A DNA stretch of 32,000 nucleotides, taken from the NCBI RefSeq assembly GCF_000011805.1, contig NC_006840.2; one strand, given 5' to 3'. This DNA is from Aliivibrio fischeri ES114. GTDB lineage: Bacteria; Pseudomonadota; Gammaproteobacteria; Enterobacterales; Vibrionaceae. Under the pieces are notes generated by a model. It worked only from the letters and a program-made list of their open reading frames with translations. It was not told the DNA's origin and did no database searches. Shown piece after piece: positions 227 through 21,029 of the stretch; the stretch's first letter is position 1; the number at the start of each line of letters is the position of its first letter. The position numbers were made by a program, and so were the translations under genes.

Positions 227-1159
227 ATGATTGTGTTTAAACGTAATTTTATACTTGCTCTACTCTTTATCATTCCATCAGTTGTTAATGCTGAAAATTA
301 TACTATTGGCACCGGTGGTCAAAGTGGTATTTATTATCCATTTGGAGGTGCATTAGCGAAGGTTTGGACTGAACATGTTCCAGATGTAACAGCAAAAGCA
401 GAGGTGACTGCTGCGTCAGTTGAAAATACCATTAAGGTTGTTCGTGGCGATATGATAGCAGGTATTGCAATGGGGAATGTGGTACTTGATGCCTATAATG
501 GTGAGGGGAAATTTCCACAAAAAATGCCAGTTAAAACCCTTTTTGCACTATACCCAAATTTAGTTCATACCATAACTCTTGAAAAATCTGGTATTACATC
601 ATTATCGCAATTAAAGGGTAAACGAGTGTCTTTAGGCGCTCCTGCAAGTGGTACTGCTGTAACTTCAGCTGCTCTACTTGAGTCTTTAGGTATTGATGTG
701 AAAAAAGACATTAAAGCGGTGTATTTAAACTACTCTGAAACTACGAATGCATTAGCAAACGGACAAATTGATGCTGGTTTTATTGTCGGTGGACAAGGGG
801 TTGGTGCTGTAACACAAATTGCATTAACACATAAAATAAAAGTGCTTTCAATTACACCAGAAGAAAGTGCACTGTTTATGAAAAAGTACCCAGCCTACAG
901 TACATACAATATTCCTGGAGGCGTATATAACAACGTTGATGAAGTGTCGACATTAAGCGTTTGGAATGTATTAGTGGTGAATGCAAAAATGAGTGATGAC
1001 ATGGCATATAACCTGACAAAAGCAGCATATGAAAATATAGGTGACGTTCGTAAAGTTGTAAAAATGGCTGAAATGACAACACCAGAAAATGCAAACAGTT
1101 TACAGGGTGTACCTCTTCATGCGGGAGCTCAAAAATATCTGGATTCAATCTTGAAGTAA
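227..1159 (+). CDS. TRAP transporter solute receptor, TAXI family
   Basis: 310-aa ORF with signal peptide (…FIIPSVVNA|ENY). The N-terminal pattern TIGTGGQSGIYYPFGG is typical of TAXI receptors, and a fused TRAP permease lies directly downstream. SD AAGGAG (221-226) abuts ATG227, so GTG233 may be the real start. Confidence 0.88.
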   Translation: MIVFKRNFILALLFIIPSVVNAENYTIGTGGQSGIYYPFGGALAKVWTEHVPDVTAKAEVTAASVENTIKVVRGDMIAGIAMGNVVLDAYNGEGKFPQKMPVKTLFALYPNLVHTITLEKSGITSLSQLKGKRVSLGAPASGTAVTSAALLESLGIDVKKDIKAVYLNYSETTNALANGQIDAGFIVGGQGVGAVTQIALTHKIKVLSITPEESALFMKKYPAYSTYNIPGGVYNNVDEVSTLSVWNVLVVNAKMSDDMAYNLTKAAYENIGDVRKVVKMAEMTTPENANSLQGVPLHAGAQKYLDSILK

Positions 1160-1186
1160 TTAAACTGTTTTACTCAATATTAAATG

Positions 1187-1220
1187 GAAGGGTAAGAGTT
1201 CTGCTTACCTTTCTTCTTTT
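1187..1220 (+). terminator. Intercistronic hairpin between receptor and permease genes (partial terminator or mRNA stabiliser)
   Basis: GAAGGGTAAG (1187-1196) pairs with CTTACCTTTC (1204-1213) with one G-U pair, 7-nt loop, followed by TTCTTTT. It sits in the 86-bp gap inside the TRAP operon. Confidence 0.4.
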
Positions 1221-1245
1221 CTGACTTTATCCTACAGGCATTAAT

Positions 1246-3156
1246 ATGGACATTATAACTGATAAAAACCAAAGCGATGTCGATGAGTATTTACCTCATG
1301 AAAGAACGGTCACTGTATTTGGATTCTTAATTTTAAGCATTGCTGTTGCATTATCCGCTTTTCAAATATGGCAGGGAATAAGCTCGACAATCTCTGCTAC
1401 TTATTTTAGGCCTATCCACTTATGTTGGGTTCTCATTCTCATCTTTTTGCATTACCCGTTAATTAATAATCGAAAGAGTTCTTTGTATTTAGCTGGGAGA
1501 GTTATCGATCTTATTTTGTGTGGTTTGATTGTTTTTGCTGCTTATCGAATGACGATATTTGATTATAACGATATCAACCATCTCTTTTATGGGTTGCAAT
1601 TACCCGATATGGTTGCGGGTTGTTCATTGATTATTTTATTAATGGAAGGCTGCCGTCGTACTGTTGGATGGGTAATGGTACTTATTGCTGTGTTATTTTT
1701 ATCTTATAGCGCATTTGGAGATATGTTACCTGCAGGTTTCGCAATTAAATCATATACCTTACAAGAGCTTATTCAGTTTCAAATTTTTTCTGCTAACGGC
1801 ATATTTGGTTCTGCATTAGGGATTGCTGCAACCACCGTTTTTGTCTTTGTTTTATTTGGAGCTTTTCTTGAGGTAACCGGGGCCGGGAAATTTTTTATTG
1901 ATTTAGCCTTTTCTATTGCGGGTAAATATCGAGGTGGTCCAGCAAAAGCGGCGGTATTAGCATCGGCCGGATTAGGTTCTATTTCTGGTTCTGCAATTGC
2001 GAACACGGTAACAACCGGTTCGATCACCATTCCAATGATGAAGAAACTCGGTTATAAGCCAGAACAGGCTGCAGGAATAGAAGCCGCTGCATCAACTGGT
2101 GGGCAAATAATGCCACCAATTATGGGGGCTGGGGCATTTGTAATGGCACAATTTACCGGTGTCCCTTATAGCGAGATCATGCTTGCATCTATTGCTCCTG
2201 CAATTTTGTATTTCTTTTGTACCTTGCTCTATGTGCATTTAATGGCATGTAAACTGAATCTTAAAGCAGCAAATCGAACTGAAGCTGTAATGAGTGTTAT
2301 GAAAGAGGGAGCTCATCATTTAATTCCACTAGCATTAATCACAACATTATTGATGATGGCGTATTCTCCATTATTAGTTGGCGTCGCTGGTTGTGCTGCA
2401 ATTTTAGTGACCGCAGCTTTAAGAAAGCACAGCCGAATAGGATTACAAAAATTCATTGAAGGCATGAAAAATGGAGCTTTAATGGCATTACCTATTTCGG
2501 CTGCATGTGGTGCTGCTGGGATAATTGTTGGTGTGGTTGGACAAACCGGAATTGGATTACAGTTTACTCAATTTGTTATGGATTTTTCGGGAGGTTACTT
2601 ACTTATAGCTCTTGGGTTAATAAGTATTGTAGCGTTAGTACTCGGAATGGGGTTACCTGTAACAGCCGCTTATATTGTATTAGCCGTAATGGCGGTTCCG
2701 ATGTTAAGTGACTTTGGTTTATCACTATTAACAGCACATCTTATTGTTTTTTGGTTATCGCAGACATCAAATGTAACGCCACCAATTGCGCTAGCTGCAT
2801 TTGCTGGAGCAGGAGTTGCTAATGCTAATCCAATGAAGTCATCAGTAGAAGCATTTAAATTGGCTGGTGGTTTGTTCATTATTCCAATAATGATGGCATA
2901 TACAAATCTGGTTGATTCTAGTGCAGGAGCTTGGAGTTTAACCTTATCGATTGTGCAAACATTGACGATTATTATAGCGATTGCCGTATCAATTGAAGGG
3001 TATTTATTACGTGTACTAACAACAGCTGAAAGGTTATTGGCTTTCTCTACTATTCCTTTAATTTTGTTAAATCCATTCGGTGCCGGTTTCGTTGGAATTA
3101 TCATTATTGCGGGATTGATATTGACTCAATGGCGAGGAAAACCTCAAGTAACATAA
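1246..3156 (+). CDS. TRAP transporter fused permease (4TM/12TM, DctQ-DctM type)
   Basis: 636-aa polytopic membrane ORF immediately after the TAXI receptor. Its size and Gly/Ala-rich TM pattern fit the fused permease that partners TAXI receptors. Confidence 0.88.
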   Translation: MDIITDKNQSDVDEYLPHERTVTVFGFLILSIAVALSAFQIWQGISSTISATYFRPIHLCWVLILIFLHYPLINNRKSSLYLAGRVIDLILCGLIVFAAYRMTIFDYNDINHLFYGLQLPDMVAGCSLIILLMEGCRRTVGWVMVLIAVLFLSYSAFGDMLPAGFAIKSYTLQELIQFQIFSANGIFGSALGIAATTVFVFVLFGAFLEVTGAGKFFIDLAFSIAGKYRGGPAKAAVLASAGLGSISGSAIANTVTTGSITIPMMKKLGYKPEQAAGIEAAASTGGQIMPPIMGAGAFVMAQFTGVPYSEIMLASIAPAILYFFCTLLYVHLMACKLNLKAANRTEAVMSVMKEGAHHLIPLALITTLLMMAYSPLLVGVAGCAAILVTAALRKHSRIGLQKFIEGMKNGALMALPISAACGAAGIIVGVVGQTGIGLQFTQFVMDFSGGYLLIALGLISIVALVLGMGLPVTAAYIVLAVMAVPMLSDFGLSLLTAHLIVFWLSQTSNVTPPIALAAFAGAGVANANPMKSSVEAFKLAGGLFIIPIMMAYTNLVDSSAGAWSLTLSIVQTLTIIIAIAVSIEGYLLRVLTTAERLLAFSTIPLILLNPFGAGFVGIIIIAGLILTQWRGKPQVT

Positions 3157-3179
3157 AACAGAATTTAGTTTCAGATATT

Positions 3180-3211
3180 AAAGCCCTTAGAGATAAGATC
3201 CTAAGGGCTTT
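3180..3211. terminator. Bidirectional terminator between convergent TRAP permease and chemoreceptor genes
   Basis: AAAGCCCTTAG (3180-3190) pairs with CTAAGGGCTTT (3201-3211), an 11-bp perfect stem, with T-rich sequence after it on the + strand. Confidence 0.7.
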
Positions 3212-3229
3212 TTATTTAAGTACAATTTT

Positions 3230-4873
3230 TTAAATTTTAAAGAATGCCAGCTCTTCTTTTTGTGAAACAGCCAGTTGTGATAGTTCTTTTGCGGCTTGTT
3301 GAGTTTGATTAATCGCAGCTACATTTTGATTAACAAGATCAAAGGTGTTGGTTGTATTTAATGCGATTCGTTCTGTGAGTGTGAACTGCTCTTGAGAGGT
3401 GCTAGCCACTAAGGTGTTCATCTTCGATATAGATTGAACCGAATTCTCAATGTAGCTGAAAGAGGATTTTACATTCTCTGATAAAGCCACAGACTCTTGA
3501 ATAAGCTCCACGTTACTTATCATGTTGTCGTTTGCTTTTTCAGATTGAGCTTGCAATTGAGCGATAATTTCTTGAATACTTTGTGTGGATTCTTGAGTTT
3601 TTGATGCAAGATTACGAACCTCATCAGCAACCACGGCAAAGCCTCGACCATATTCACCAGCACGAGCCGCCTCAATTGCAGCATTAAGTGCTAATAAATT
3701 TGTTTGGTCTGAAATGGTACTGATAACTGCAGTTACTTCCCCAATGTCCATTGCATTGGTTTTTAGCTCAGCAATCATACTCGCTGTTAGTTGTACAGAT
3801 TCATTGATTTTTTGAGTTAAATGAATCGATTCATCTAAGGTTTGGTTGCCTTGAGAAACACTGTCTATCGCTTTACTCACTTCTTCTTCAGCGTGAACTG
3901 CATTAGATGTTACTTCTTTTGACGTTGTCGATAGCTCACTGATTGCGTGTGAAATCTCTTCAACTTGGGCTAATTCATGTTGAGCATTATTTGCTGTGTT
4001 TTGCATCACCTCAGTTAGCTGTTCTGATGATGTTGCAACGTGAGTTGAAATATCACTGCTATTTCTGATTGCAGCGCCGACTTTTTCATTAAGAATAATT
4101 AATGAATTGTAGATGCCAACCGCACTTGAAGCGTTATTAAAACGTTGGGATAGATTACCTTCAGAGATCTTCTTAATCATCTCAGATAGCTCCCAAGGTT
4201 CACCACCTAAAGAAACTCTAAAACTACGCTCGATAATCAAACCAATAAATAATGAGGTAGCTAAAGCAAACATGCTAAGAATTAGCATTAATTGTTGGAA
4301 GCCACCAGCAACATTTCTTGCTTCAGGTGTAAGGATTTGGTTTCGGGTTTCTTGATAATCAATAAACTGGTTAATGTCATCTAGCCATTGAATAAACGCC
4401 GGTCTAATCGAGTCTAAAACAACATCAGTAGTGAGTTTACCTGACTTTTTATCACGAATAACTTGGTCGATTAACGGTAATGTCGTTTTTTGAATTTTTT
4501 CGATATTAGCTAAAATGCTGAGTTCTTCACTGGTAAATGCGATACCATCTTGGCGCATTTTTTTCATTTGTGCTTCTGAATCACGATAGAAGGTTTGTAA
4601 TCGGTTAATCTCTTTTTCTAAATGTGATATTTCTTGTGGGGTTCTTGCGATAGCAATATCTCTAATAGCAATTGCACGGTCATGTACACTGCCACGGTAA
4701 TTGATTGCATAGCGTTGTTTAACTGAATTAATGTCAGTCATTTCAGTTAAAGTATGATCAATAATATTTACTTTTTGTATTCCTAAAATGGTAAGTAGAA
4801 GCATTAGGAATAAAGTAATACCAAATCCTATTATTAAGCGAGCGCGAATAGTTAGCTTTGAAAATTTGTCCAA
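3230..4873 (-). CDS. Methyl-accepting chemotaxis protein, four-helix-bundle (4HB_MCP) sensor
   Basis: 547 aa: TM1, a periplasmic region with [19 protein letters not shown] (4HB_MCP pattern), TM2, HAMP, and a signalling domain with tip motif [30 protein letters not shown]. Confidence 0.9.
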
Positions 4874-5129: not shown

Positions 5130-7136
5130 TTAACTTAATTTAAATAAAGCGATTTCAGATTTCTGCTGGTCAGCGAGTTTTGCCAACTCTTGGCTTACTA
5201 GTTGTGTTTGATGAATTGATGATACATTTTCATTGACTAAATCAAATGTGCGAGTTGTATTTTTAGCGATATCTTCAGTAACAGAATATTGTTCTTGAGA
5301 AGCCGTGGCTACTAATGTATTGATATCTGAGATGGCTTGAACTGAGTTTTCTATATCATTGAAAGACAGTTTCACATCTTCAGCTAATACAACTGATTGT
5401 TGAATTAACGTAACATTTTCAATCATATTATTATTTGCTTTTTCTGATTGATATTGAAGCTTTGAAATAATTTCTTGAATATGTTGTGTAGATTGTTGTG
5501 TTTTAGCTGCTAGGTTACGTACCTCATCAGCAACGACGGCAAAGCCTCGACCTTGTTCGCCGGCTCTTGCTGCTTCAATGGCAGCATTTAGGGCAAGAAG
5601 ATTAGTTTGATCTGAAATAGAGCTGATCACATTAGTCACTTCACCAATGTTAACTGTATTTGCTCTTAATTCTTCAATCATTGATGCTGTTTGTTGAACA
5701 GAATCATTAATACTACGAGTTAAAGACATCGAATTTTCTAAATGCTGTTTACCAATATCGACATTATTAATAGCTGATTGAGCTTCTTCTTCAGCATGGG
5801 TCGCATTGGTCGTTACTTCTTTAGATGTACTCGATAGCTCACTGATTGCCGTTGAAATTTCTTCTACTTGCGCCAACTCATGCTGAGAGTTATTTGCGGT
5901 TACTTCCATTACTACATTGGATTCTTCTGCACTGGTGGCCAGTTGGGTGCTACCAATATCCATTTTTTGTAAAACCGAATGAAACTCAGCGAGCATTTCA
6001 TTTAAATATTTAGTACTCACACCTAATTCATCTTCAGATAATACTTTAGCCCTTATGGTTAAATCTTTATCTTTAGATACCGTTTCAATTACTTGTGATA
6101 GCTGTACAGCTTGGCCAATTAATAGTTTAGATATAATGACTGATGAAACGATAGTAATAGATAAAATAAGCAAGATAATGAATAGGCTTGAATAAATAGC
6201 CGTATTAACTTCACTATTTAGACGTGAGATTACTTTCTCAATATCATCAACCAGTAAATCTTCGTATTGTTTAAATTCATTAATTCGATTCGTAGAGGCT
6301 TGATACCATTCGCTGCCTGATACAGTAAATTTACCAGAAACATATTGCGCATTTACCATGTCACGGATGTTCGATACTTTTTGTGAAATGGAATCAGAGA
6401 GTATTTTATTTAAAGCATCAACTTGCTCAGAGGTTGCGTATTCGACGAATGTAGCAAGGTAGGCATTTTGAGTTGAATCAAGTGCTACAAATGTTTTGTA
6501 TAAGGTTAAAGGGACAGGACCAGAACTTGATAAAATGTTATTTAAGCTGGCGCGTTCTTTTCCTGCTGATTCTTTGATCTCTAAAAATAATGAATAGTTT
6601 CTCAAATGAGGTGTTAGTGTTCGCTCAGTTGATGTTTTAACGATCATATTACTTAAAGATAAGAACAGTCGGTTAATATCCGTATAATATTTTGCTGCAT
6701 TTGATGCTGATATTGTCAAATTATCAACATTATTACGAATAGTGTCTAATTGATTTAATTGCGTAAATATTGTCTGCATATCGTTATACACGGCAATATT
6801 TGTTTTTTGTATCGATTGTGCTTTTTCTTTTAATGATTGTAGATACGTATTTAGTACAGAATCGGTTTCTTTTCGTTGCTCAAGCATTTCACTTTTAAAG
6901 TTTACCCCTTTTGAACTAACAAATCCTGCAGTAGAGCCACGTTCTTTTTGAAGTTCGTGAACAATTAAACTGCCTTCAATTGAAATATCGGTCATTGAAG
7001 TAATGTCTTGCAGTTCAGAACGTAGTGAAACGGTTTTGTATAGGGTATCAAGTGAAAAGAAGAGCATCCCAATAATCGGAAGGGTAATGATTAAAAGGAT
7101 TTTTTGCTTAAACGAGAGTTTTTTTATGAAATTCAT
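5130..7136 (-). CDS. Methyl-accepting chemotaxis protein with periplasmic NIT (nitrate/nitrite-sensing type) domain
   Basis: 668 aa: TM1, a ~285-aa periplasmic domain containing [18 protein letters not shown]…EQRKETD (NIT-domain signature), TM2, HAMP, and a signalling domain with [30 protein letters not shown]. Confidence 0.88.
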
Positions 7137-7526
7137 GATGCTTAATCTTCGTAAATAATATTTTTTGGTTATTAGTATTTGTCAATTGCATTGTGTTAGC
7201 TTTACGTGTTTTTTTCATATTTCGTTTTGCTTTCTCAAAAGCAAGAATATTTTATATGATTAGCATTTAATCTTATCTACCACTTTGGGGTGATTATTTA
7301 TACTAAAATCAACTGAAATCATTGTTAATAATAGATTTTATGAAGGTGTTAGTTTTTTATTTTAGATGGCTTAAGATGGGGAAAATTTCAATTTTATTCT
7401 TAATATGGACTAGGTGAATCGCTGTAAAATCAATAACAAATATTCGAGATTATTTATAACCACTGCTACCTTTTAATATAGATATAAATAAAAAGAGTAA
7501 GCTCTATATTTTAAGGAGTTCATATT

Positions 7527-8627
7527 ATGCAGGGAGATAGGGTAAAGCGCTTGTGGTGTAAAGGAGTGATACGTTTATTCTCAATTCTATTGATTTTTAG
7601 TTCTTTTTTTGTACAAGCACAGCCGCAATTAAAGGTGGGTGCTTATCATTGTCCTCCATTTATTTTTGAATCTAGCGAAGAGCAGTATGACGGTTTGAGT
7701 ATGATTCTTTGGCAACGTATTGCTGAAATCATGCAAGTTGAATACAAGGTAAGTCATTATGGGCTTCAAGAGTTACTTAGTGCGGCTGAAGTGGGTGAAA
7801 TAGACGTAGGTGTTTCATGCATATCAATAACCCCTGACCGTGAAGAACATGTCGATTTTTCCCATTCCTTTTATGAAACTCACCTTGCCATAGCGGTTAA
7901 AAATCGAAGTTATCTTGATTCATTTATTAGCATTATTACTAATAAAACCTTATGGAAGGCTATTTGTCTCTTCTTATTTGTAGCGATCTCAGTAGGTACT
8001 TTTTATTACTTATTAGAGCGTAAAAATAACGATAAATTATATTCGATGCCAACCAAACGAGGACGCATAGCTGAAGCGTTTATTTTAGGGGTGTTGTTTA
8101 TTACTAAAGGGCCATTTAATTATTTTGAATTTAAAACATTGTCGGCAAGAGTGGTAACGGTATTAATTGCCATGTTTTCTACCGTATTTATCGCTAGTAT
8201 CACAGCAGTACTAGCAAGTTCACTCACATTAGAGCAGTTAAGGTTTGATGTAAAAGGCATCAATGATTTATCAAAAGTAAAAACGGGTGCGAAGCAAGGA
8301 ACTACCGCTTCATTACTACTGAGTAATCACAGCATTGCCCACGATACCTACAAAGATATGGATGCGCTTTTATTGGCTCTTGAAAAAGGTCAATTAGATG
8401 CCGTTGTCGCTGATGATGCTGTATTGCGATATATGATTAAGAAAGGAAAGGGAAAAGACTTATTTTTAGATTTAACGGTATTACCATATCAGTTAGAGAA
8501 GCAAAATTACGGTTTAGTATTAATTGAAAATAGTCCTTATGAAGAGAAAATTAATCGAGCACTATTACAAGTTCGAGAAACCAACGAATGGCATCAAATA
8601 CTATTAGAGTATTTTGCTGAAAAATAA
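7527..8627 (+). CDS. Ionotropic-glutamate-receptor-like ligand-gated channel (S1-M1-P-M3-S2, GluR0-type topology)
   Basis: SD AAGGAG lies upstream of ATG7527, followed by a signal peptide (…FFVQA|QPQ). A binding-protein fold is split by three hydrophobic segments (aa 142-163, 181-200, 205-235). SITAVLASSLT resembles the iGluR gate motif [11 protein letters not shown], and ISITPDREEHVDFSHSF resembles the iGluR S1 ligand-binding segment. Confidence 0.8.
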   Translation: MQGDRVKRLWCKGVIRLFSILLIFSSFFVQAQPQLKVGAYHCPPFIFESSEEQYDGLSMILWQRIAEIMQVEYKVSHYGLQELLSAAEVGEIDVGVSCISITPDREEHVDFSHSFYETHLAIAVKNRSYLDSFISIITNKTLWKAICLFLFVAISVGTFYYLLERKNNDKLYSMPTKRGRIAEAFILGVLFITKGPFNYFEFKTLSARVVTVLIAMFSTVFIASITAVLASSLTLEQLRFDVKGINDLSKVKTGAKQGTTASLLLSNHSIAHDTYKDMDALLLALEKGQLDAVVADDAVLRYMIKKGKGKDLFLDLTVLPYQLEKQNYGLVLIENSPYEEKINRALLQVRETNEWHQILLEYFAEK

Positions 8628-8715
8628 CAGAATTTGTGAGTAAAAAGTATCAGGTTTAGGTTGTGTCACGTATTATTGAAATTGCGACAATATAGAGTGA
8701 ATTTAGGAGTAATTG

Positions 8716-9417
8716 ATGTCGAGTATGTACACAACATTCGCAGAGCAATATGACAATGTGGTTCAGGATAATATTTATAATGCATACCTAGAAAGACCGT
8801 CACTCCAGGCTATGTTAGGTGATGTGAACGGTTGTGATGTGATTGATCTTGGCTGTGGCTCTGGTGTCTATGCCGATTATTTTATTCATCGTGGGGTAGC
8901 AAAGCTAACTTGTATCGATTACTCACCCAATATGATTGAAATTGTTAAGCGAAAATTTGGTGATCGAGTTACCGCTTATGCACAAGATGCGTCTATTGGG
9001 TTAATAAAAGAAGCAAGTGAAAGCGCTGATTTGATTATTTCGCCACTGATGATTCATTATTTAGAAGACCTCTCGGTACTTTTTAATGATGTTGCTCGTG
9101 TTTTAAAAAATGGTGGAAACTTTGCTTTTTCTACTCATCATCCGTTTGCTGACTTTGAATGCACATTATCAGGAAACTATTTTGAAAGAGAATTCATTAC
9201 TGAAATGTGGAATACCGTTGGCGAGCCAGTTGAAGTGACATTCTATCGTCGTTCATTAACAGAAATAATGAATGCGATTACAGACAGTGGTTTAGTTGTA
9301 ACGCAGTTATCCGAAGGTAAAGTGGCTGAAGAAGTAAAACAGATATCTCTAGAAAAATATGAGTATTTATCTAAAAACCCTAATTTCATTTTTATAAAAT
9401 GCCAAAAGCTAGTTTAG
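8716..9417 (+). CDS. Class I SAM-dependent methyltransferase
   Basis: Motif I VIDLGCGSGVY. ATG8716 is preceded by AGGAG (8705-8709). The ORF track begins one codon earlier at TTG8713. Confidence 0.85.
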   Translation: MSSMYTTFAEQYDNVVQDNIYNAYLERPSLQAMLGDVNGCDVIDLGCGSGVYADYFIHRGVAKLTCIDYSPNMIEIVKRKFGDRVTAYAQDASIGLIKEASESADLIISPLMIHYLEDLSVLFNDVARVLKNGGNFAFSTHHPFADFECTLSGNYFEREFITEMWNTVGEPVEVTFYRRSLTEIMNAITDSGLVVTQLSEGKVAEEVKQISLEKYEYLSKNPNFIFIKCQKLV

Positions 9418-17107: not shown

Positions 17108-17884
17108 ATGAAAAAGAAAATTAAATTAATTATAAAAATCGTATTGTTTTTAGCATTTGTTGGTGTAGTTGGGCATGTGTTTGCCGCAGAGCCCATGTCA
17201 GCAGATAAGGTCGTTGCAAAGTCAGATGAGCAAATGCGTGGTAAATCGAGTTATTCAGAAATTACGATGAATATTATTCGTCCCGATTGGACTCGTAGTA
17301 TGAGTATGAAGAGTTGGACGAAAGAGCAAAACCTTTCTTTAGTATTAATCACAGGCCCGGCCAAAGATAAAGGCAATGCTTCTCTTAAGCGTGATAAAGA
17401 GATGTGGAGCTGGATACCTAGCATTGAACGAGTGATTAAAATAGCCCCATCGATGCTTGGGCAATCTTGGATGGGATCAGATTTCACCAATGATGACTTG
17501 ATTAACCAGTCTTCGATCGTCGTGGATTATGATCATAAGTTTGTAAAAGAAGAGACCATTGATGGTGATAAAACATGGGTAATCGACGCCATCGCAAAAC
17601 CAGATGCACCAGTAGTATGGAGTAAGGTTCGTCTTTGGATATCTCAAAAAACGTTTATTCAACGTAAGGTTGAGTCTTATGATGAGTTTGATGAGCTAGT
17701 AAACACGATGACGACTTACGATATTCAAGAAATGGGCAATCGAATGATAGCAACAAGAATGGTCATGATCCCTGCCGATAAGCCTGAAAATAAAACAGAA
17801 ATGATCACCCATAAGGCGCAGTTTAACTTCTTAATTAATGATGAATTCTTCTCTCAAATGCAAATGAAGGCATTACGATACTAA
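17108..17884 (+). CDS. LolA-like outer-membrane lipoprotein-sorting family protein (periplasmic)
   Basis: 258 aa with a type I signal peptide (…VGHVFA|AEP, no lipobox Cys). The pattern SYSEITMNIIRPDWTRSMSMKSWTKE…MWSWIPSIERVIKI…SWMGSDFTNDDL is typical of the LolA_like family, and the gene heads an FtsX/ABC operon. Confidence 0.75.
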   Translation: MKKKIKLIIKIVLFLAFVGVVGHVFAAEPMSADKVVAKSDEQMRGKSSYSEITMNIIRPDWTRSMSMKSWTKEQNLSLVLITGPAKDKGNASLKRDKEMWSWIPSIERVIKIAPSMLGQSWMGSDFTNDDLINQSSIVVDYDHKFVKEETIDGDKTWVIDAIAKPDAPVVWSKVRLWISQKTFIQRKVESYDEFDELVNTMTTYDIQEMGNRMIATRMVMIPADKPENKTEMITHKAQFNFLINDEFFSQMQMKALRY

Positions 17885-17899
17885 CTATAGGTGCTGAAT

Positions 17900-19129
17900 A
17901 TGCTTATTAAATTAGCTTGGCGAAACCTATGGCGACAGAAAAGAAGAACGATATTAACGGCCTCTGCATTAGCCTTGGCCTTATTACTTTCGTTGTTGAT
18001 GCGTAGCATTCAAGAAGGGAGCTATACAGCAAATATCGAGAATGCCGCACGTTTATCAACTGGCCTTATTCAACTGCAAAATCCCGAATTTAAAGAAACG
18101 CAAAGTATTGATGATTTGTTACCAATGAGTGACGACTTCATCGCTCCCACTAAGCAACAACCTAATATCCAATTTACCTTACCTCGAATTGAAACGTTTT
18201 CACTTGCTGCCGCAAAAGATAAGTCCAAGGGTGTATTAGTTGTTGGTGTCGATCCTCAACCTGAAAATACCTATTCATCTTTGGCAGATAAAGTGGTGCA
18301 AGGAGCGTATTTTACCGCAACGGATAAATCGGTATTGTTATCAGAAGGACTGGCGAGATATTTTCAGTTAAATGTAGGGGATGAAATTGTTCTTTATGGG
18401 CAAGGTTATCGAGGGCAGACTGCAGCAGGCTTATATGTAATAAAAGGCATTGTTCACTTTCCAATGCCAGATCTAAATAACCAATTAATCTACCTTCCGA
18501 TTCAAGAAGCGGTTCAACTCTTTAGTACCGAGAATCAAGTAACGTCATGGGTGTTGCATACACGTGATTTTTCTTTGTTACCACAAACGGTTGATAACCT
18601 ACAAAAAGGGTATGGGCAAGTAGTGTCTGTACGTCCGTGGAATGATCTTAGCCCTGAAATGGAACAGCAAATTCAAATCGATAGAGTGAGCGGTATTATC
18701 ATGATGTACATTTTATATGGCATTGTGGGCTTTGGTTTGTTCGCCACATTATTAATGATGACGCTTGAAAGACAGCGCGAATTTGGTGTGATGTTAGCGA
18801 CTGGAATGGTTCGGTTTCGATTATTAAAGCTGTTAGTAATTGAATCTTTCTTTATTGGCTTATTAGGTATTCTTTTAGGCTTAGTTATCGCTATTCCGGT
18901 TCTTGGTTATCTTTATATCAATCCAATTACATTAACGGGTGAAACCGCCAAAGCGATGCTTGAAATGGGGTATGATCCTGTTATTCCAGTATTAATCAGT
19001 GGGTGGCTTTTTATAAACCAAATGTTGATTGTTACAGGTTTACTGCTTTTATGCCTATTATATCCATTATGGCGTGTTTATCACCTCGATATTGTTACTG
19101 CATTAAAAGGAGGTTCTCATGCTGCTTAA
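17900..19129 (+). CDS. ABC transporter permease, FtsX/MacB type (permease 1)
   Basis: Starts MLIKLAWRNLWRQKRRT, parallel to its paralogue. N-terminal TM, ~220-aa periplasmic domain, and three C-terminal TMs with ERQREFGVMLATG. AGGTG lies 8 nt upstream of ATG17900. The track begins at GTG17891. Confidence 0.9.
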   Translation: MLIKLAWRNLWRQKRRTILTASALALALLLSLLMRSIQEGSYTANIENAARLSTGLIQLQNPEFKETQSIDDLLPMSDDFIAPTKQQPNIQFTLPRIETFSLAAAKDKSKGVLVVGVDPQPENTYSSLADKVVQGAYFTATDKSVLLSEGLARYFQLNVGDEIVLYGQGYRGQTAAGLYVIKGIVHFPMPDLNNQLIYLPIQEAVQLFSTENQVTSWVLHTRDFSLLPQTVDNLQKGYGQVVSVRPWNDLSPEMEQQIQIDRVSGIIMMYILYGIVGFGLFATLLMMTLERQREFGVMLATGMVRFRLLKLLVIESFFIGLLGILLGLVIAIPVLGYLYINPITLTGETAKAMLEMGYDPVIPVLISGWLFINQMLIVTGLLLLCLLYPLWRVYHLDIVTALKGGSHAA

Positions 19130-20336
19130 ATTAGCGTGGCGTAATGTGTGGCGCAATAAAATGAGAACCTCAATCATGCTGGGCGCTATGATCTTCGGTG
19201 TCGTAGGCGTGATTTTAATGATGGGGTTCATGTCTGGCTTTATCGATAATATGGTGAAAAATACCATTCAGTGGCAAACCAGCCATATTCAAATTCATCA
19301 AAAGAATTATGCGTTAAATCCGGATATCAATCTTGTTATTGATGAAGAAAAGGAAATCACTCCGCTATTAAATGATTCCTCAGACGTGAAAGCATGGTCA
19401 AGTCGTACTTTAGTTAACGGCATGATAGCGTCAGCACGAAGTACCAGAGGCATAAAGATAAATGGCATCAATCTTCAAATGGAGAAAAAAATAACCCCGT
19501 TATCGGCACATATCATTGATGGTGAATGGCTAAGTGAAACTGGGCGAAATCCCATTTTAGTATCACAAAAAACCGCAGAGCGATTAAAACTGCGCGTGGG
19601 TTCTAAAGTCGTGCTTACTTTTAGTGATACGACAGGCGAAGTTACTGGAGCTGCGTTTAGAGTCAGTGGCATATTTAAAACATCGTCGAGCACGTTTGAT
19701 GATGCCAACACTTACGTTCGTAAAGCAGATTTACAGAAAGTTGGAAAAGTATTTCAAGATCATGAAATAGCGATTTTATTAAACGACAATACAAAAGTAG
19801 AGGCGTTTAGAGATCACTTAATAACAAATATAAATTCAGATAATAGTGTGCAAGATTGGCTGCAATTACAGCCTATTTTGTCAACGATGATGAGTTCGAT
19901 GAACGCTGGTAATCAAGTTATTTTAGTCATTTTTATTGTCGCAATGGGCTTTGGGATCATTAATATTTTATTGATGTCCGTGTTTGAGCGCACTCGAGAG
20001 TTTGGTGTTCTGATGGCCGTTGGCATGAAGAAAGATCGGATTCGTTATCTAATTATTTTGGAGTCTGGATTCCTAGGGTTATTAGGAGGAGGGATAGGAG
20101 TACTGCTGTCCATATTATGCATAGCGGTGTTCAACCATACCGGTATTCCACTAGAGTCCATGGCACAAGGCCTTAATGCATTTGGTATTGATTCGGTACT
20201 TTATCCTAGTATTTCATGGCATCAATACGCAGTGGTATCCATTATGGTCTTCTTTGTTAGTGTGTGTGCGGGGTTATATCCAGCGCACCAGATCATTAAA
20301 AAGAATCCTGTTCAAGCAATGGCAGAAAAGCAATAA
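19119..20336 (+). CDS. ABC transporter permease, FtsX/MacB type (permease 2)
   Basis: Starts MLLKLAWRNVWRNKMRT, has the same 1+3 TM topology and ERTREFGVLMAVG. Its start overlaps the upstream stop by 11 nt (ATGCTGCTTAA). Confidence 0.9.
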   Translation: MLLKLAWRNVWRNKMRTSIMLGAMIFGVVGVILMMGFMSGFIDNMVKNTIQWQTSHIQIHQKNYALNPDINLVIDEEKEITPLLNDSSDVKAWSSRTLVNGMIASARSTRGIKINGINLQMEKKITPLSAHIIDGEWLSETGRNPILVSQKTAERLKLRVGSKVVLTFSDTTGEVTGAAFRVSGIFKTSSSTFDDANTYVRKADLQKVGKVFQDHEIAILLNDNTKVEAFRDHLITNINSDNSVQDWLQLQPILSTMMSSMNAGNQVILVIFIVAMGFGIINILLMSVFERTREFGVLMAVGMKKDRIRYLIILESGFLGLLGGGIGVLLSILCIAVFNHTGIPLESMAQGLNAFGIDSVLYPSISWHQYAVVSIMVFFVSVCAGLYPAHQIIKKNPVQAMAEKQ

Positions 20337-20345
20337 GGTGAGTGT

Positions 20346-21029
20346 ATGACAATTCAAATTAAGCAATTATGCAAAACATACAATCAAGATACAGAGTTTC
20401 CAGTTCACGCCGTTGATCATCTCGATCTTACTATTGAGCAGGGGGAGTTTGTTGCTGTTATTGGTCCATCAGGTTCAGGCAAAACCACCTTACTTAATAT
20501 GCTAGGCGGTATTGATGCCGTAACGTCAGGAAAAGTGAGCATTGATAATCATGAATTAACCGAAATGGATGAAAAGCAACTGATTGAGTTTCGACGAGAC
20601 AATATCGGCTTTATTTTTCAAGACTACAGTTTATTACCTGTTTTAACTGCATTAGAGAATGTTGAGTTTGTTATGCTGTTACAGGGTCACGAAGAGGCTG
20701 AATGTAAATTACGAGCACAGCAATTATTAAAGCGAGTTGGACTAGAAGATCAACAGCACAAGCGACCAGCCCAATTATCTGGCGGTCAACAACAACGAGT
20801 AGCGGTGGCCAGAGCATTAGCCCCACGACCTCGTTTTATTATGGCAGATGAGCCAACGGCAAATTTAGATGCAAAGAGTACCGCAGAGCTGTTAGATATT
20901 ATGGAAGCGCTAAACCAAGAAGAGAATACAACGTTTATTTTTTCTACCCATGATTCTCGCGTATTTGAAAGAGCCAAAAGAATCATCGTGTTTGAAGATG
21001 GCCAATTAAAAGAAGATAAACAGCAATAA
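20346..21029 (+). CDS. ABC transporter ATP-binding protein (LolD/MacB-type)
   Basis: Walker A GPSGSGKTT, signature LSGGQQQRVAVARAL, Walker B FIMADEPT, H-loop STHD. It lies 9 nt after permease 2. Confidence 0.95.
   Translation: MTIQIKQLCKTYNQDTEFPVHAVDHLDLTIEQGEFVAVIGPSGSGKTTLLNMLGGIDAVTSGKVSIDNHELTEMDEKQLIEFRRDNIGFIFQDYSLLPVLTALENVEFVMLLQGHEEAECKLRAQQLLKRVGLEDQQHKRPAQLSGGQQQRVAVARALAPRPRFIMADEPTANLDAKSTAELLDIMEALNQEENTTFIFSTHDSRVFERAKRIIVFEDGQLKEDKQQ

Follow-up and report, generated by a model that had tools for sequence, protein, structure and literature searches.

What is encoded at 7527..8627, on the + strand, of the 32,000-nucleotide stretch of the Aliivibrio fischeri ES114 genome analysed here (the window)? 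The 366-aa product matches AAW85588.1 / WP_011261724.1 of A. fischeri ES114 residue for residue. That protein has been given two quite different names: the original GenBank entry calls it a 'glutamate-gated potassium channel' and RefSeq currently calls it a 'transporter substrate-binding domain-containing protein'. An earlier note on this DNA proposed a channel resembling the ionotropic glutamate receptors (iGluRs), with no K+-channel filter. Is the protein a K+ channel, a component of an uptake system, or a channel of another kind?

Prokaryotic iGluRs bear on how a binding protein and a K+-channel pore gave rise to the neurotransmitter-gated cation channels. GluR0 of Synechocystis was reportedly found by Chen and colleagues in 1999 to be K+-selective and glutamate-gated, and to our knowledge functional recordings among the prokaryotic iGluRs come from this K+-selective type only. 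Our search of the literature found no functional study of the 366-aa protein or of any prokaryotic iGluR without a K+ filter.

The identity and classification of this protein are already published. Ger et al. 2010 (PMC2950845) list a 366-aa 'putative glutamate-sensitive ion channel' of Vibrio fischeri ES114, YP_204476.1, as entry #42 in their 'Group 2', which takes in the prokaryotic iGluRs that lack a K+ filter; that this entry is AAW85588.1 is judged from organism, length and product name. The earlier note had therefore overrated the novelty of the protein. Group 2 is heterogeneous, with members in cyanobacteria, alpha-proteobacteria, Vibrio and Photobacterium, and is described as having the order S1-TM-P-TM-S2, a P region that is not K+-like, and a conserved Arg in S1 and Asp in S2 (PMC2950845). 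The window protein, a listed member, has all of these features. Its interest lies not in its existence or class, but in the physiology of a non-K+ iGluR and in the signature of its clade. A tightly conserved clade of this kind, present in a genetically tractable squid symbiont, is a convenient system in which to ask which ion a bacterial non-K+ iGluR conducts, which ligand it senses, and why periplasmic amino acids should be coupled to membrane conductance.

The gene and its surroundings

The open reading frame at 7527..8627 is complete (366 codons and a stop), and its translation is exactly that quoted in the earlier note. A strong Shine-Dalgarno sequence, AAGGAG (7513..7518, +), can be read 8 nt upstream of the ATG. 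The open reading frame is a real gene. Members of the clade to which its product belongs occur in at least 53 species-level genomes, from the genera Aliivibrio, Vibrio, Photobacterium and Moritella. There were no Rfam matches anywhere in the window. Within 7000-8800, promoter-like sites were no more frequent than in shuffled sequence and the search found no terminator.

The genes that flank the orthologues differ between A. wodanis, the V. harveyi group, P. damselae, Moritella, Ferrimonas and Desulfosediminicola. Across these six orthologue loci and the window, the only shared neighbours are LysR and NupC, and these are shared within Aliivibrio only. There is no conserved partner gene in the six orthologue loci, the context gives no hint of a role, and an assignment of function from gene neighbourhood was rejected for this reason.

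Architecture and topology

All of the features of the protein are given on the + strand. The first 31 residues (7527..7619) have a basic n-region, a hydrophobic core and the sequence V-Q-A followed by Q, and are predicted to be a cleaved signal peptide. The AF2 model (pLDDT 88.2) has a helix here at aa 3-27, and identity within the family is just 12.7%, which is typical for signal peptides. The S1 lobe follows directly (aa 35-127, 7629..7907) and contains C42, C98, S100, T102 and R105. Next come a pre-M1 helix and the M1 transmembrane helix (aa 129-164, 7911..8018; AF2 helices 129-138 and 140-164), the M1-M2 loop (aa 165-176, 8019..8054), and a re-entrant pore helix (aa 177-194) with an extended filter segment (aa 195-204), which together occupy 8055..8138. 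The M3 inner helix, with the beginning of the M3-S2 linker (aa 205-238, 8139..8240), is helical in the model over aa 205-232 and is aligned by HMMER with M3 of kainate, NMDA and delta receptors. The S2 lobe (aa 245-365, 8259..8621), which contains T260 and D296, ends at the end of the 366-aa protein. There is thus neither an ATD nor an M4, and the order S1-M1-P-M3-S2 that the earlier note had read from the hydrophobic segments agrees with the modelled ones and is that of GluR0. Proteins of the GluR0 type likewise have no ATD or M4, are about 360-400 aa long, and have a periplasmic clamshell split by M1-P-M3. In the AF2 model of the 366-aa protein the lobes span aa 35-125 (S1) and aa 246-365 (S2).

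Profile searches find both halves of this architecture, and with this falls one refuting case of the earlier note, the lack of a significant Lig_chan match. A single SBP_bac_3 envelope (72.3 bits, aa 38-364) is split by the membrane domain, and that domain is matched by Lig_chan, PF00060, over aa 141-252 at 39.8 bits against a curated cut-off of 30.8. Lig_chan-Glu_bd is matched at 31.0 bits (cut-off 30). Neither Ion_trans_2 nor BPD_transp_1 has a match in the 366-aa protein, even at E<=1.

Between aa 165 and aa 180, around the M1-M2 loop, there are six K/R residues and one D/E. This is as expected for a cytoplasmic loop under the positive-inside rule, so S1 and S2 should both be periplasmic. 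In the predicted structure M1, the re-entrant pore helix and M3 are folded together with both lobes on the outer side. The case that the earlier note had set against its own reading, in which the lobes lie on opposite sides of the membrane, is contradicted by this predicted topology.

Membership of the iGluR superfamily

The 366-aa protein is a genuine member of the iGluR superfamily, a stand-alone prokaryotic homologue with a bilobed, SBP-like ligand-binding domain divided into S1 and S2 by a channel domain. In a PDB sequence search its best iGluR-type match was 2pyy, the LBD of a bacterial homologue (E 2.6e-24), to which both lobes align (aa 34-127 and aa 235-363; 'davvaDdavl' on 'davvfDapvl'). 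GluN2A was matched over aa 95-355 with an E of about 1e-12, and the TMD alone as query matched M1-M3 of kainate, NMDA, delta and AMPA receptors. When the family profile was aligned by hhalign with the PDB-verified S1-TMD-S2 of GluA2, the probability was 97% (E 1e-10, 256 columns). Of 1,870 Foldseek matches to the AF2 model (E<=10), each of the best 50 is an iGluR LBD-TMD chain; the matches listed include AMPA, kainate, NMDA and delta chains, with E about 1e-19 and TM 0.5-0.63.

GluA2 (for instance PDB 3kg2 and 5weo) shares the LBD-TMD fold at this Foldseek level of about 1e-19. The 366-aa protein differs from GluA2 in having neither an ATD nor an M4 or C-terminal domain, and a GluA2-type LBD disulfide is likewise missing. 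The two are about 18% identical overall, and their pore loops are not confidently alignable.

The ligand site

The earlier note had assigned the binding of the ligand alpha-carboxylate to an Arg in S1. This residue is R105 and is conserved in 118 of 118 homologues. D296 is also invariant among them and T260 is present in 115. The positions of R105 and D296 match those in 2pyy and the residues used by Ger et al. (PMC2950845) for classification, and the two probably form the Arg/Asp pair that binds an alpha-amino acid. They are also shared with the GluR0 type.

A call of the specific ligand from the pockets of GlnH or 2pyy was attempted and rejected: the residues that bind the ligand backbone transfer, but the side-chain determinants differ. 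The 2pyy structure, which we take to be Nostoc punctiforme GluR0 with L-glutamate, is of a soluble LBD alone. Because the side-chain-specific residues of its pocket differ from those of the 366-aa protein, its ligand cannot be carried over. A further difference in S1 is the C42/C98 pair, which is found only in this clade and is absent from 102 of 102 K+-filter representatives.

The M3 gate

The gate motif of M3 is S224-I-T226-A-V-L-A230-S-S-L-T234. This SITAVLASSLT sequence has 7 of 11 identities when compared with the SYTANLAAF-related gate motif. All 118 homologues keep T226 and T234, and 115 of them have A230. In ungapped register T226, A230, T234 and L238 fall on GluA2 T617, A621, T625 and M629. 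The GluA2 strings quoted in the earlier note match PDB GluA2 chains exactly, and its count of 14 identities in 35 ungapped M3 positions is exact as well; 20,000 shuffles gave a mean of 3.2 and a maximum of 12.

Does this make the gate a eukaryote-type trait that sets the protein apart, as the earlier note had it? It does not, since the gate threonines are equally kept in the K+-filter (GluR0-type) relatives, which have the equivalent of T226 in 93/102 and that of T234 in 94/102. Nor did its clade come out as more eukaryote-like than the GluR0 type. With GluA2 as the sole eukaryotic reference and 140 representatives picked by similarity to the clade profile, phmmer gave the opposite result: the mean score with the GluA2 TMD was 32.4 bits for K+-filter relatives and 11.6 bits for this clade, and with the GluA2 LBD-TMD it was 60.2 and 28.5 bits. 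The clade has the lowest GluA2 TMD scores of the prokaryotic groups compared. The claim that Group 2 is nearer to the eukaryotic iGluRs (PMC2950845) is thus not supported for this clade when GluA2 is the reference.

The pore loop

The pore loop reads ITKGPFNYFEF and, as the earlier note had observed, lacks the T-x-G-Y-G signature of K+ channels. The clade motif is T193-[K/R]194-G195-P196-F-N-Y-[F/Y]-E201-F202. In a MAFFT alignment T-K-G-P-F-N falls on the T-T-V-G-Y-G columns of the K+-filter relatives, so that T-[K/R]-G-P-F-N-Y in this clade stands in place of the T-T-V-G-Y-G-D of the GluR0 type. Position 194, at the end of the pore helix, is Lys in 91 and Arg in 27 of the 118 family members, and P196 replaces a Gly of G-Y-G in all of them. 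Other invariant residues of the family include E183, G188, G195, F202, R208, A227, L229 and S231, together with the gate threonines. E183 and G188 are features of the clade, absent from 102/102 K+-filter representatives. The TxGP filter and the C42/C98 pair are not described in PMC2950845. Together with the strong conservation of the pore set out below, they appear to be previously undescribed details of the Vibrionaceae clade.

The pore helix and filter are the most conserved domain of the protein. Across 117 homologues identity is 73.7% in M2 and the filter and 66.1% in M3, compared with 58.4% in S1 and 56.5% in S2, a distribution that we count in favour of a working pore. The equivalent of the eukaryotic Q/R/N site is ambiguous, being T193 by HMMER, G195 in ungapped register from M3 and Y199 by hhalign; placement goes as far as the apex of the pore loop, with K/R194 at the end of the helix.

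Function and alternative explanations

The protein is probably a periplasm-sensing, amino-acid-gated, tetrameric channel of the inner membrane, with a selectivity that is not of the K+-channel type. After Sec export and cleavage of the signal peptide, the S1/S2 clamshell is predicted to lie outside the inner membrane, its halves linked through M1, the cytoplasm-facing re-entrant pore loop and M3. By homology, four subunits would form the pore. An alpha-amino acid would be held between the lobes, R105 contacting its alpha-carboxylate and D296 its alpha-amino group, with S100, T102 and T260 as likely backbone and hydroxyl contacts, to judge from their conservation. Closure of the lobes would then pull on the M3-S2 linker and open the M3 bundle crossing at T226/A230/T234/L238. 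Ions would cross the T-[K/R]-G-P-F-N-Y-x-E-F filter, and because this replaces T-V-G-Y-G, the selectivity should not be that of a K+ channel. The tetramer, the gating and the conduction are all drawn from homology with other iGluRs.

Might the protein instead not conduct at all? Some delta-type and chemosensory relatives of the iGluRs were long suspected to be non-conducting, and the scaffold might be retained here in a periplasmic amino-acid sensor, as a membrane anchor, for oligomerisation or to signal to a partner. A ring of Lys or Arg near the pore apex could make for a poorly conducting pore, and the basic residue 194, after which come G-P and a stretch rich in aromatic residues, could occlude a pore for cations; the low scores of the clade against the GluA2 TMD are in keeping with this. 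Against it, conservation within the protein is highest in the pore helix, filter and M3, and the gate positions are invariant. In addition, the six orthologue loci offer no conserved partner gene, and the protein stops after S2 and so has no cytoplasmic signalling domain. We consider such a sensor unlikely.

Rather less probable still is the suggestion that the clade represents a new type of selectivity. Four basic residues in a ring at or next to the Q/R/N site might make the amino-acid-gated pore permeable to anions, or at least closed to mono- and divalent cations, and C42-C98, beside the binding strand, might retune the pocket away from glutamate. If true, the anion reading would give the iGluRs their first natural anion-type member, and bacteria a new kind of transducer from periplasmic amino acids to membrane potential.

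A glutamate-gated K+ channel like that of Synechocystis, the reading behind the GenBank name, is very improbable. The architecture is that of GluR0, and 102 of the 140 nearest full-length representatives, from outside or inside the clade, carry the K+ filter. However, T-K-G-P-F-N occupies the filter columns in the 366-aa protein, with Pro throughout the family at a Gly of G-Y-G. The P loop has neither the T-V-G-Y-G nor the Ion_trans_2 match that mark the GluR0-type 'Group 1', and Ger et al. place the protein outside their K+ group (PMC2950845).

Least credible of all is the reading in the RefSeq name, in which the protein binds substrate for an ABC transporter or some other uptake system, possibly with the remnant of a fused permease. 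SBP_bac_3 is the strongest Pfam match, GlnH and LAO-binding proteins are the strongest NCBIfam matches (far below cut-offs; GlnH 77.8 bits against an equivalog cut-off of 303) and the GlnPQ substrate-binding domains (PDB 6h30) are the top PDB sequence match, with a common type II SBP fold and backbone-binding Arg and Asp. Here, however, a channel domain of 110 aa that passes the Lig_chan cut-off interrupts the fold at the S1/S2 junction. Transporter partners are lacking too: in none of seven genomes (the six orthologue loci and the window) does an ABC permease or ATPase gene lie next to it. The permease remnant, which the earlier note had named as a refuting case, is contradicted by the absence of BPD_transp_1 at E<=1 and by a fold whose listed Foldseek matches are iGluR TMDs and not permeases. 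The TRAP genes of the window (227..3156) are set off from 7527..8627 by two chemoreceptor genes and have a TAXI-type binding protein of their own.

Family assignment and predicted structure

The ORF at 7527..8627 (+) encodes 366 aa and has a Shine-Dalgarno sequence, AAGGAG at 7513-7518, 8 nt 5' of its ATG. The protein letters quoted in the earlier note match this translation exactly. In some A. fischeri assemblies a 330-aa version is annotated (cluster member P0125), which presumably begins at an internal codon and is without the signal peptide. The shorter version is probably a start-codon miscall, given the strong Shine-Dalgarno site at the start of the 366-aa form.

The profile searches proposed in that note placed both models above their curated cut-offs in Pfam. 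SBP_bac_3 matched with 72.3 bits in a single envelope (aa 38-364), and Lig_chan (PF00060) with 39.8 bits at aa 141-252, for a cut-off of 30.8 bits. For Lig_chan-Glu_bd the score was 31.0 bits and the cut-off 30. Amino-acid binding proteins of NCBIfam matched below threshold only; GlnH, for one, reached 77.8 bits where the cut-off is 303. The possibility that the hydrophobic core is the remnant of an ABC permease fusion found nothing in its favor, there being no match to BPD_transp_1 even at E<=1.

The AlphaFold2 model, built with 58 homologues as input, has a mean pLDDT of 88.2. It contains an N-terminal helix at aa 3-27 (the signal peptide, with V-Q-A then Q), the ligand-binding lobe S1 (aa 35-125), a pre-M1 segment (aa 129-138), M1 (aa 140-164), a pore helix (aa 177-194), an extended segment (aa 195-204), M3 (aa 205-232) and the second lobe, S2 (aa 246-365). 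This agrees with the S1-M1-P-M3-S2 order read from the sequence; there is no M4, since the chain stops after S2. Could the two lobes lie on opposite sides of the membrane? The M1-M2 loop (aa 165-180) has six K/R and one D/E, the pattern expected of a cytoplasmic loop, and S1 and S2 are therefore both placed in the periplasm.

In a Foldseek search of the PDB, the best 50 matches were solely LBD-TMD chains of AMPA, kainate, NMDA and delta receptors (E about 1e-19, TM 0.5-0.63). With hhalign the family profile aligned to a GluA2 S1-TMD-S2 construct across 256 columns, at a probability of 97% and an E of 1e-10. The GluA2 sequence used for comparisons had beforehand been matched residue by residue to PDB chains, with which the strings quoted in the note also agree exactly. 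All three refuting conditions set in the note were checked, and each check went in favor of the idea. The assignment to the iGluR family is sound, and the observation of a bacterial iGluR-like channel gene is confirmed.

The encoded protein has exactly the sequence of A. fischeri ES114 AAW85588.1 / WP_011261724.1, first named 'glutamate-gated potassium channel' and now 'transporter substrate-binding domain-containing protein'. Ger et al. (2010, PLoS One, PMC2950845) searched prokaryotes for proteins with S1 and S2 on either side of two TM helices and a P loop. Entry #42 of their supplementary table is a 366-aa 'glutamate-gated potassium channel' of Vibrio fischeri ES114 (YP_204476.1, NC_006840), which their Table 2 assigns to Group 2, the non-K+ class. 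The central interpretation has therefore already been published for this exact protein. No functional work on it, or on any non-K+ prokaryotic iGluR, was found in the searchable literature. What remains of interest is its physiology, together with a clade-specific filter and Cys pair.

Pore-loop classes and distribution

Close homologues, with 45-81% identity, are present in Aliivibrio, Vibrio, Photobacterium, Moritella, Ferrimonas and one Desulfosediminicola. The survey of distribution that the note had suggested, run on a single genome for each species, yielded 53 loci, almost all of them in Vibrionaceae and Moritella. When a profile was run against 1.84 billion cluster representatives, 18,110 matched at E<=1e-3 and 969 of them reached E<=1e-30, with scores falling steeply from 345 to 245 bits past about a dozen representatives.

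We aligned 140 full-length representatives and sorted them by pore loop. The K+ signature of GluR0, T-V-G-Y-G, is carried by 102, and 12 make up the clade of the ES114 protein, with T-[K/R/Q/S]-G-[P/A/T]; the other 26 have various loops. Further non-K+ loops recur among the prokaryotic iGluR-like representatives, L-L-G-H-K-G-[VI] and T-A-Q-E-P-D being examples (P0155, P0156, P0181, P0213, P0230; P0184, P0242, P0270). Beyond the K+ and T-x-G-P filters there are therefore several other distinct types.

The clade-specific pore loop and cysteines

As the note had stated, the K+ filter is absent. Ion_trans_2, the K+ pore model, has no match even at E<=1, and in the alignment of the 140 representatives T-K-G-P-F-N falls in the very columns of T-T-V-G-Y-G. 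Among 118 close homologues the loop I-T193-[K/R]194-G195-P196-F197-N198-Y199-[F/Y]-E201-F202 is almost invariant (K in 91, R in 27); position 194 is Q or S in remoter clade members. In the AlphaFold2 model the pore helix ends at K194 and the G-P break follows, which would put the basic residue at the loop apex. The register against eukaryotic receptors is uncertain: HMMER sets T193-K194-G195 on GluN1 N-S-G and GluD2 Q-Q-G, the ungapped register from M3 sets G195 on GluA2 Q586, and hhalign sets Y199 there. All that is claimed here is a place for K/R194 no more than about one residue from the apex.

Two lobe 1 cysteines, C42 and C98 (codons 7650-7652 and 7818-7820), are invariant in 118/118 close homologues. 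They occur together in all 12 clade representatives and in none of the 128 other prokaryotic iGluR representatives. C98 is two residues ahead of S100, in the ligand-binding strand, and it is reasonable to infer from the sequences a clade-specific periplasmic disulfide adjoining the pocket. No earlier description of the clade's pore loop, Cys pair or pattern of domain conservation was found in the searchable literature.

Identity by domain is highest in the pore, at 73.7% for M2 plus filter and 66.1% for M3, compared with 58.4% for S1 and 56.5% for S2. This pattern is an argument that selection maintains a functional pore.

Ligand-site residues and the M3 gate

R105, the S1 arginine proposed to bind the ligand alpha-carboxylate, is invariant in the 118 homologues. 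So is D296, which aligns with the Asp of 2pyy, the LBD of a bacterial iGluR homologue.

The 14 of 35 ungapped M3 identities to GluA2 were reproduced exactly; 20,000 shuffles gave a mean of 3.2 and a maximum of 12. In this register T226, A230, T234 and L238 correspond to GluA2 T617, A621, T625 and M629, which form the bundle-crossing gate of GluA2. Is this gate, called eukaryote-type in the note, a distinguishing trait? It is not: T226 is kept in 93/102 and T234 in 94/102 K+-filter representatives, as conserved as in this clade. With GluA2 as the sole eukaryotic reference and representatives selected by similarity to this clade's profile, the K+-filter group also scored higher than the clade in mean M3 identity (13.6/35 against 11.1/35), in phmmer with a GluA2 TMD query (means of 32.4 and 11.6 bits; ES114 protein, 16.4) and with an LBD-TMD query (means of 60.2 and 28.5 bits). 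The gate motif is thus a common iGluR feature, presumably ancestral, and by sequence comparison with this single reference the clade resembles GluA2 less than the K+-filter group does.

Proposed mechanism

Family membership, topology, conservation of the backbone-binding residues and of the gate, and a non-K+ filter are each shown or predicted, and by homology a working cycle can be proposed. The subunits would form a tetramer, an amino acid would drive clamshell closure and so a pull on the M3-S2 linker, and the M3 bundle crossing would then open. AMPA and kainate receptors with Arg at the Q/R site conduct less and let some Cl- through. Basic residues forming a ring at the pore apex would be expected to disfavor cations, which we offer as a lead and not as a result.

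Gene neighborhood

The nearest transporter to the channel gene in the window is an upstream TAXI-TRAP pair (227-3156, +), unrelated to it, which comprises an NMT1_3 binding protein (227..1159, +) and a 636-aa DctM-family membrane protein (1246..3156, +; DctM match at aa 129-552). Two chemoreceptor genes, adjacent to each other and divergent from the channel gene, also lie upstream, one with a 4HB_MCP_1 sensor (3230..4873, -) and one with a nitrate/nitrite-sensing NIT domain (5130..7136, -). A class I SAM-methyltransferase ORF with a TTG start (8713..9417, +) separates the channel gene from a LysR regulator, and a NupC-type nucleoside transporter is also downstream of the methyltransferase.

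The syntenic site in A. wodanis (locus L004) has neither chemoreceptor, DctM abutting the orthologue there, and the pair therefore has the look of an insertion or deletion particular to one lineage. A. wodanis also lacks the methyltransferase at the position corresponding to that ORF, where there is only a short spacer (L004 7101-7159). The orthologue's neighbors are all different in the V. harveyi group, P. damselae, Moritella, Ferrimonas and Desulfosediminicola. The channel gene therefore stands alone, without ABC partners, and across the window and the orthologue loci the gene context gives no lead on its role. Rfam had no match in the window, and the 390-bp region upstream of the channel gene gave promoter matches at chance level only.

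At one Vibrio harveyi group locus (L001, CP025793.1) an IS element with HTH_28 and rve transposase ORFs (2478-3895) lies upstream of the orthologue's divergent neighbor; L002 and L003, which are the same in all other respects, do not have it. Elsewhere in the window, at 17108-21029 (+), the gene for a LolA-like protein precedes those for a pair of MacB/FtsX-type permeases and for an ABC ATPase; together they look like an ordinary export operon of a lipoprotein-release-like or MacB type.
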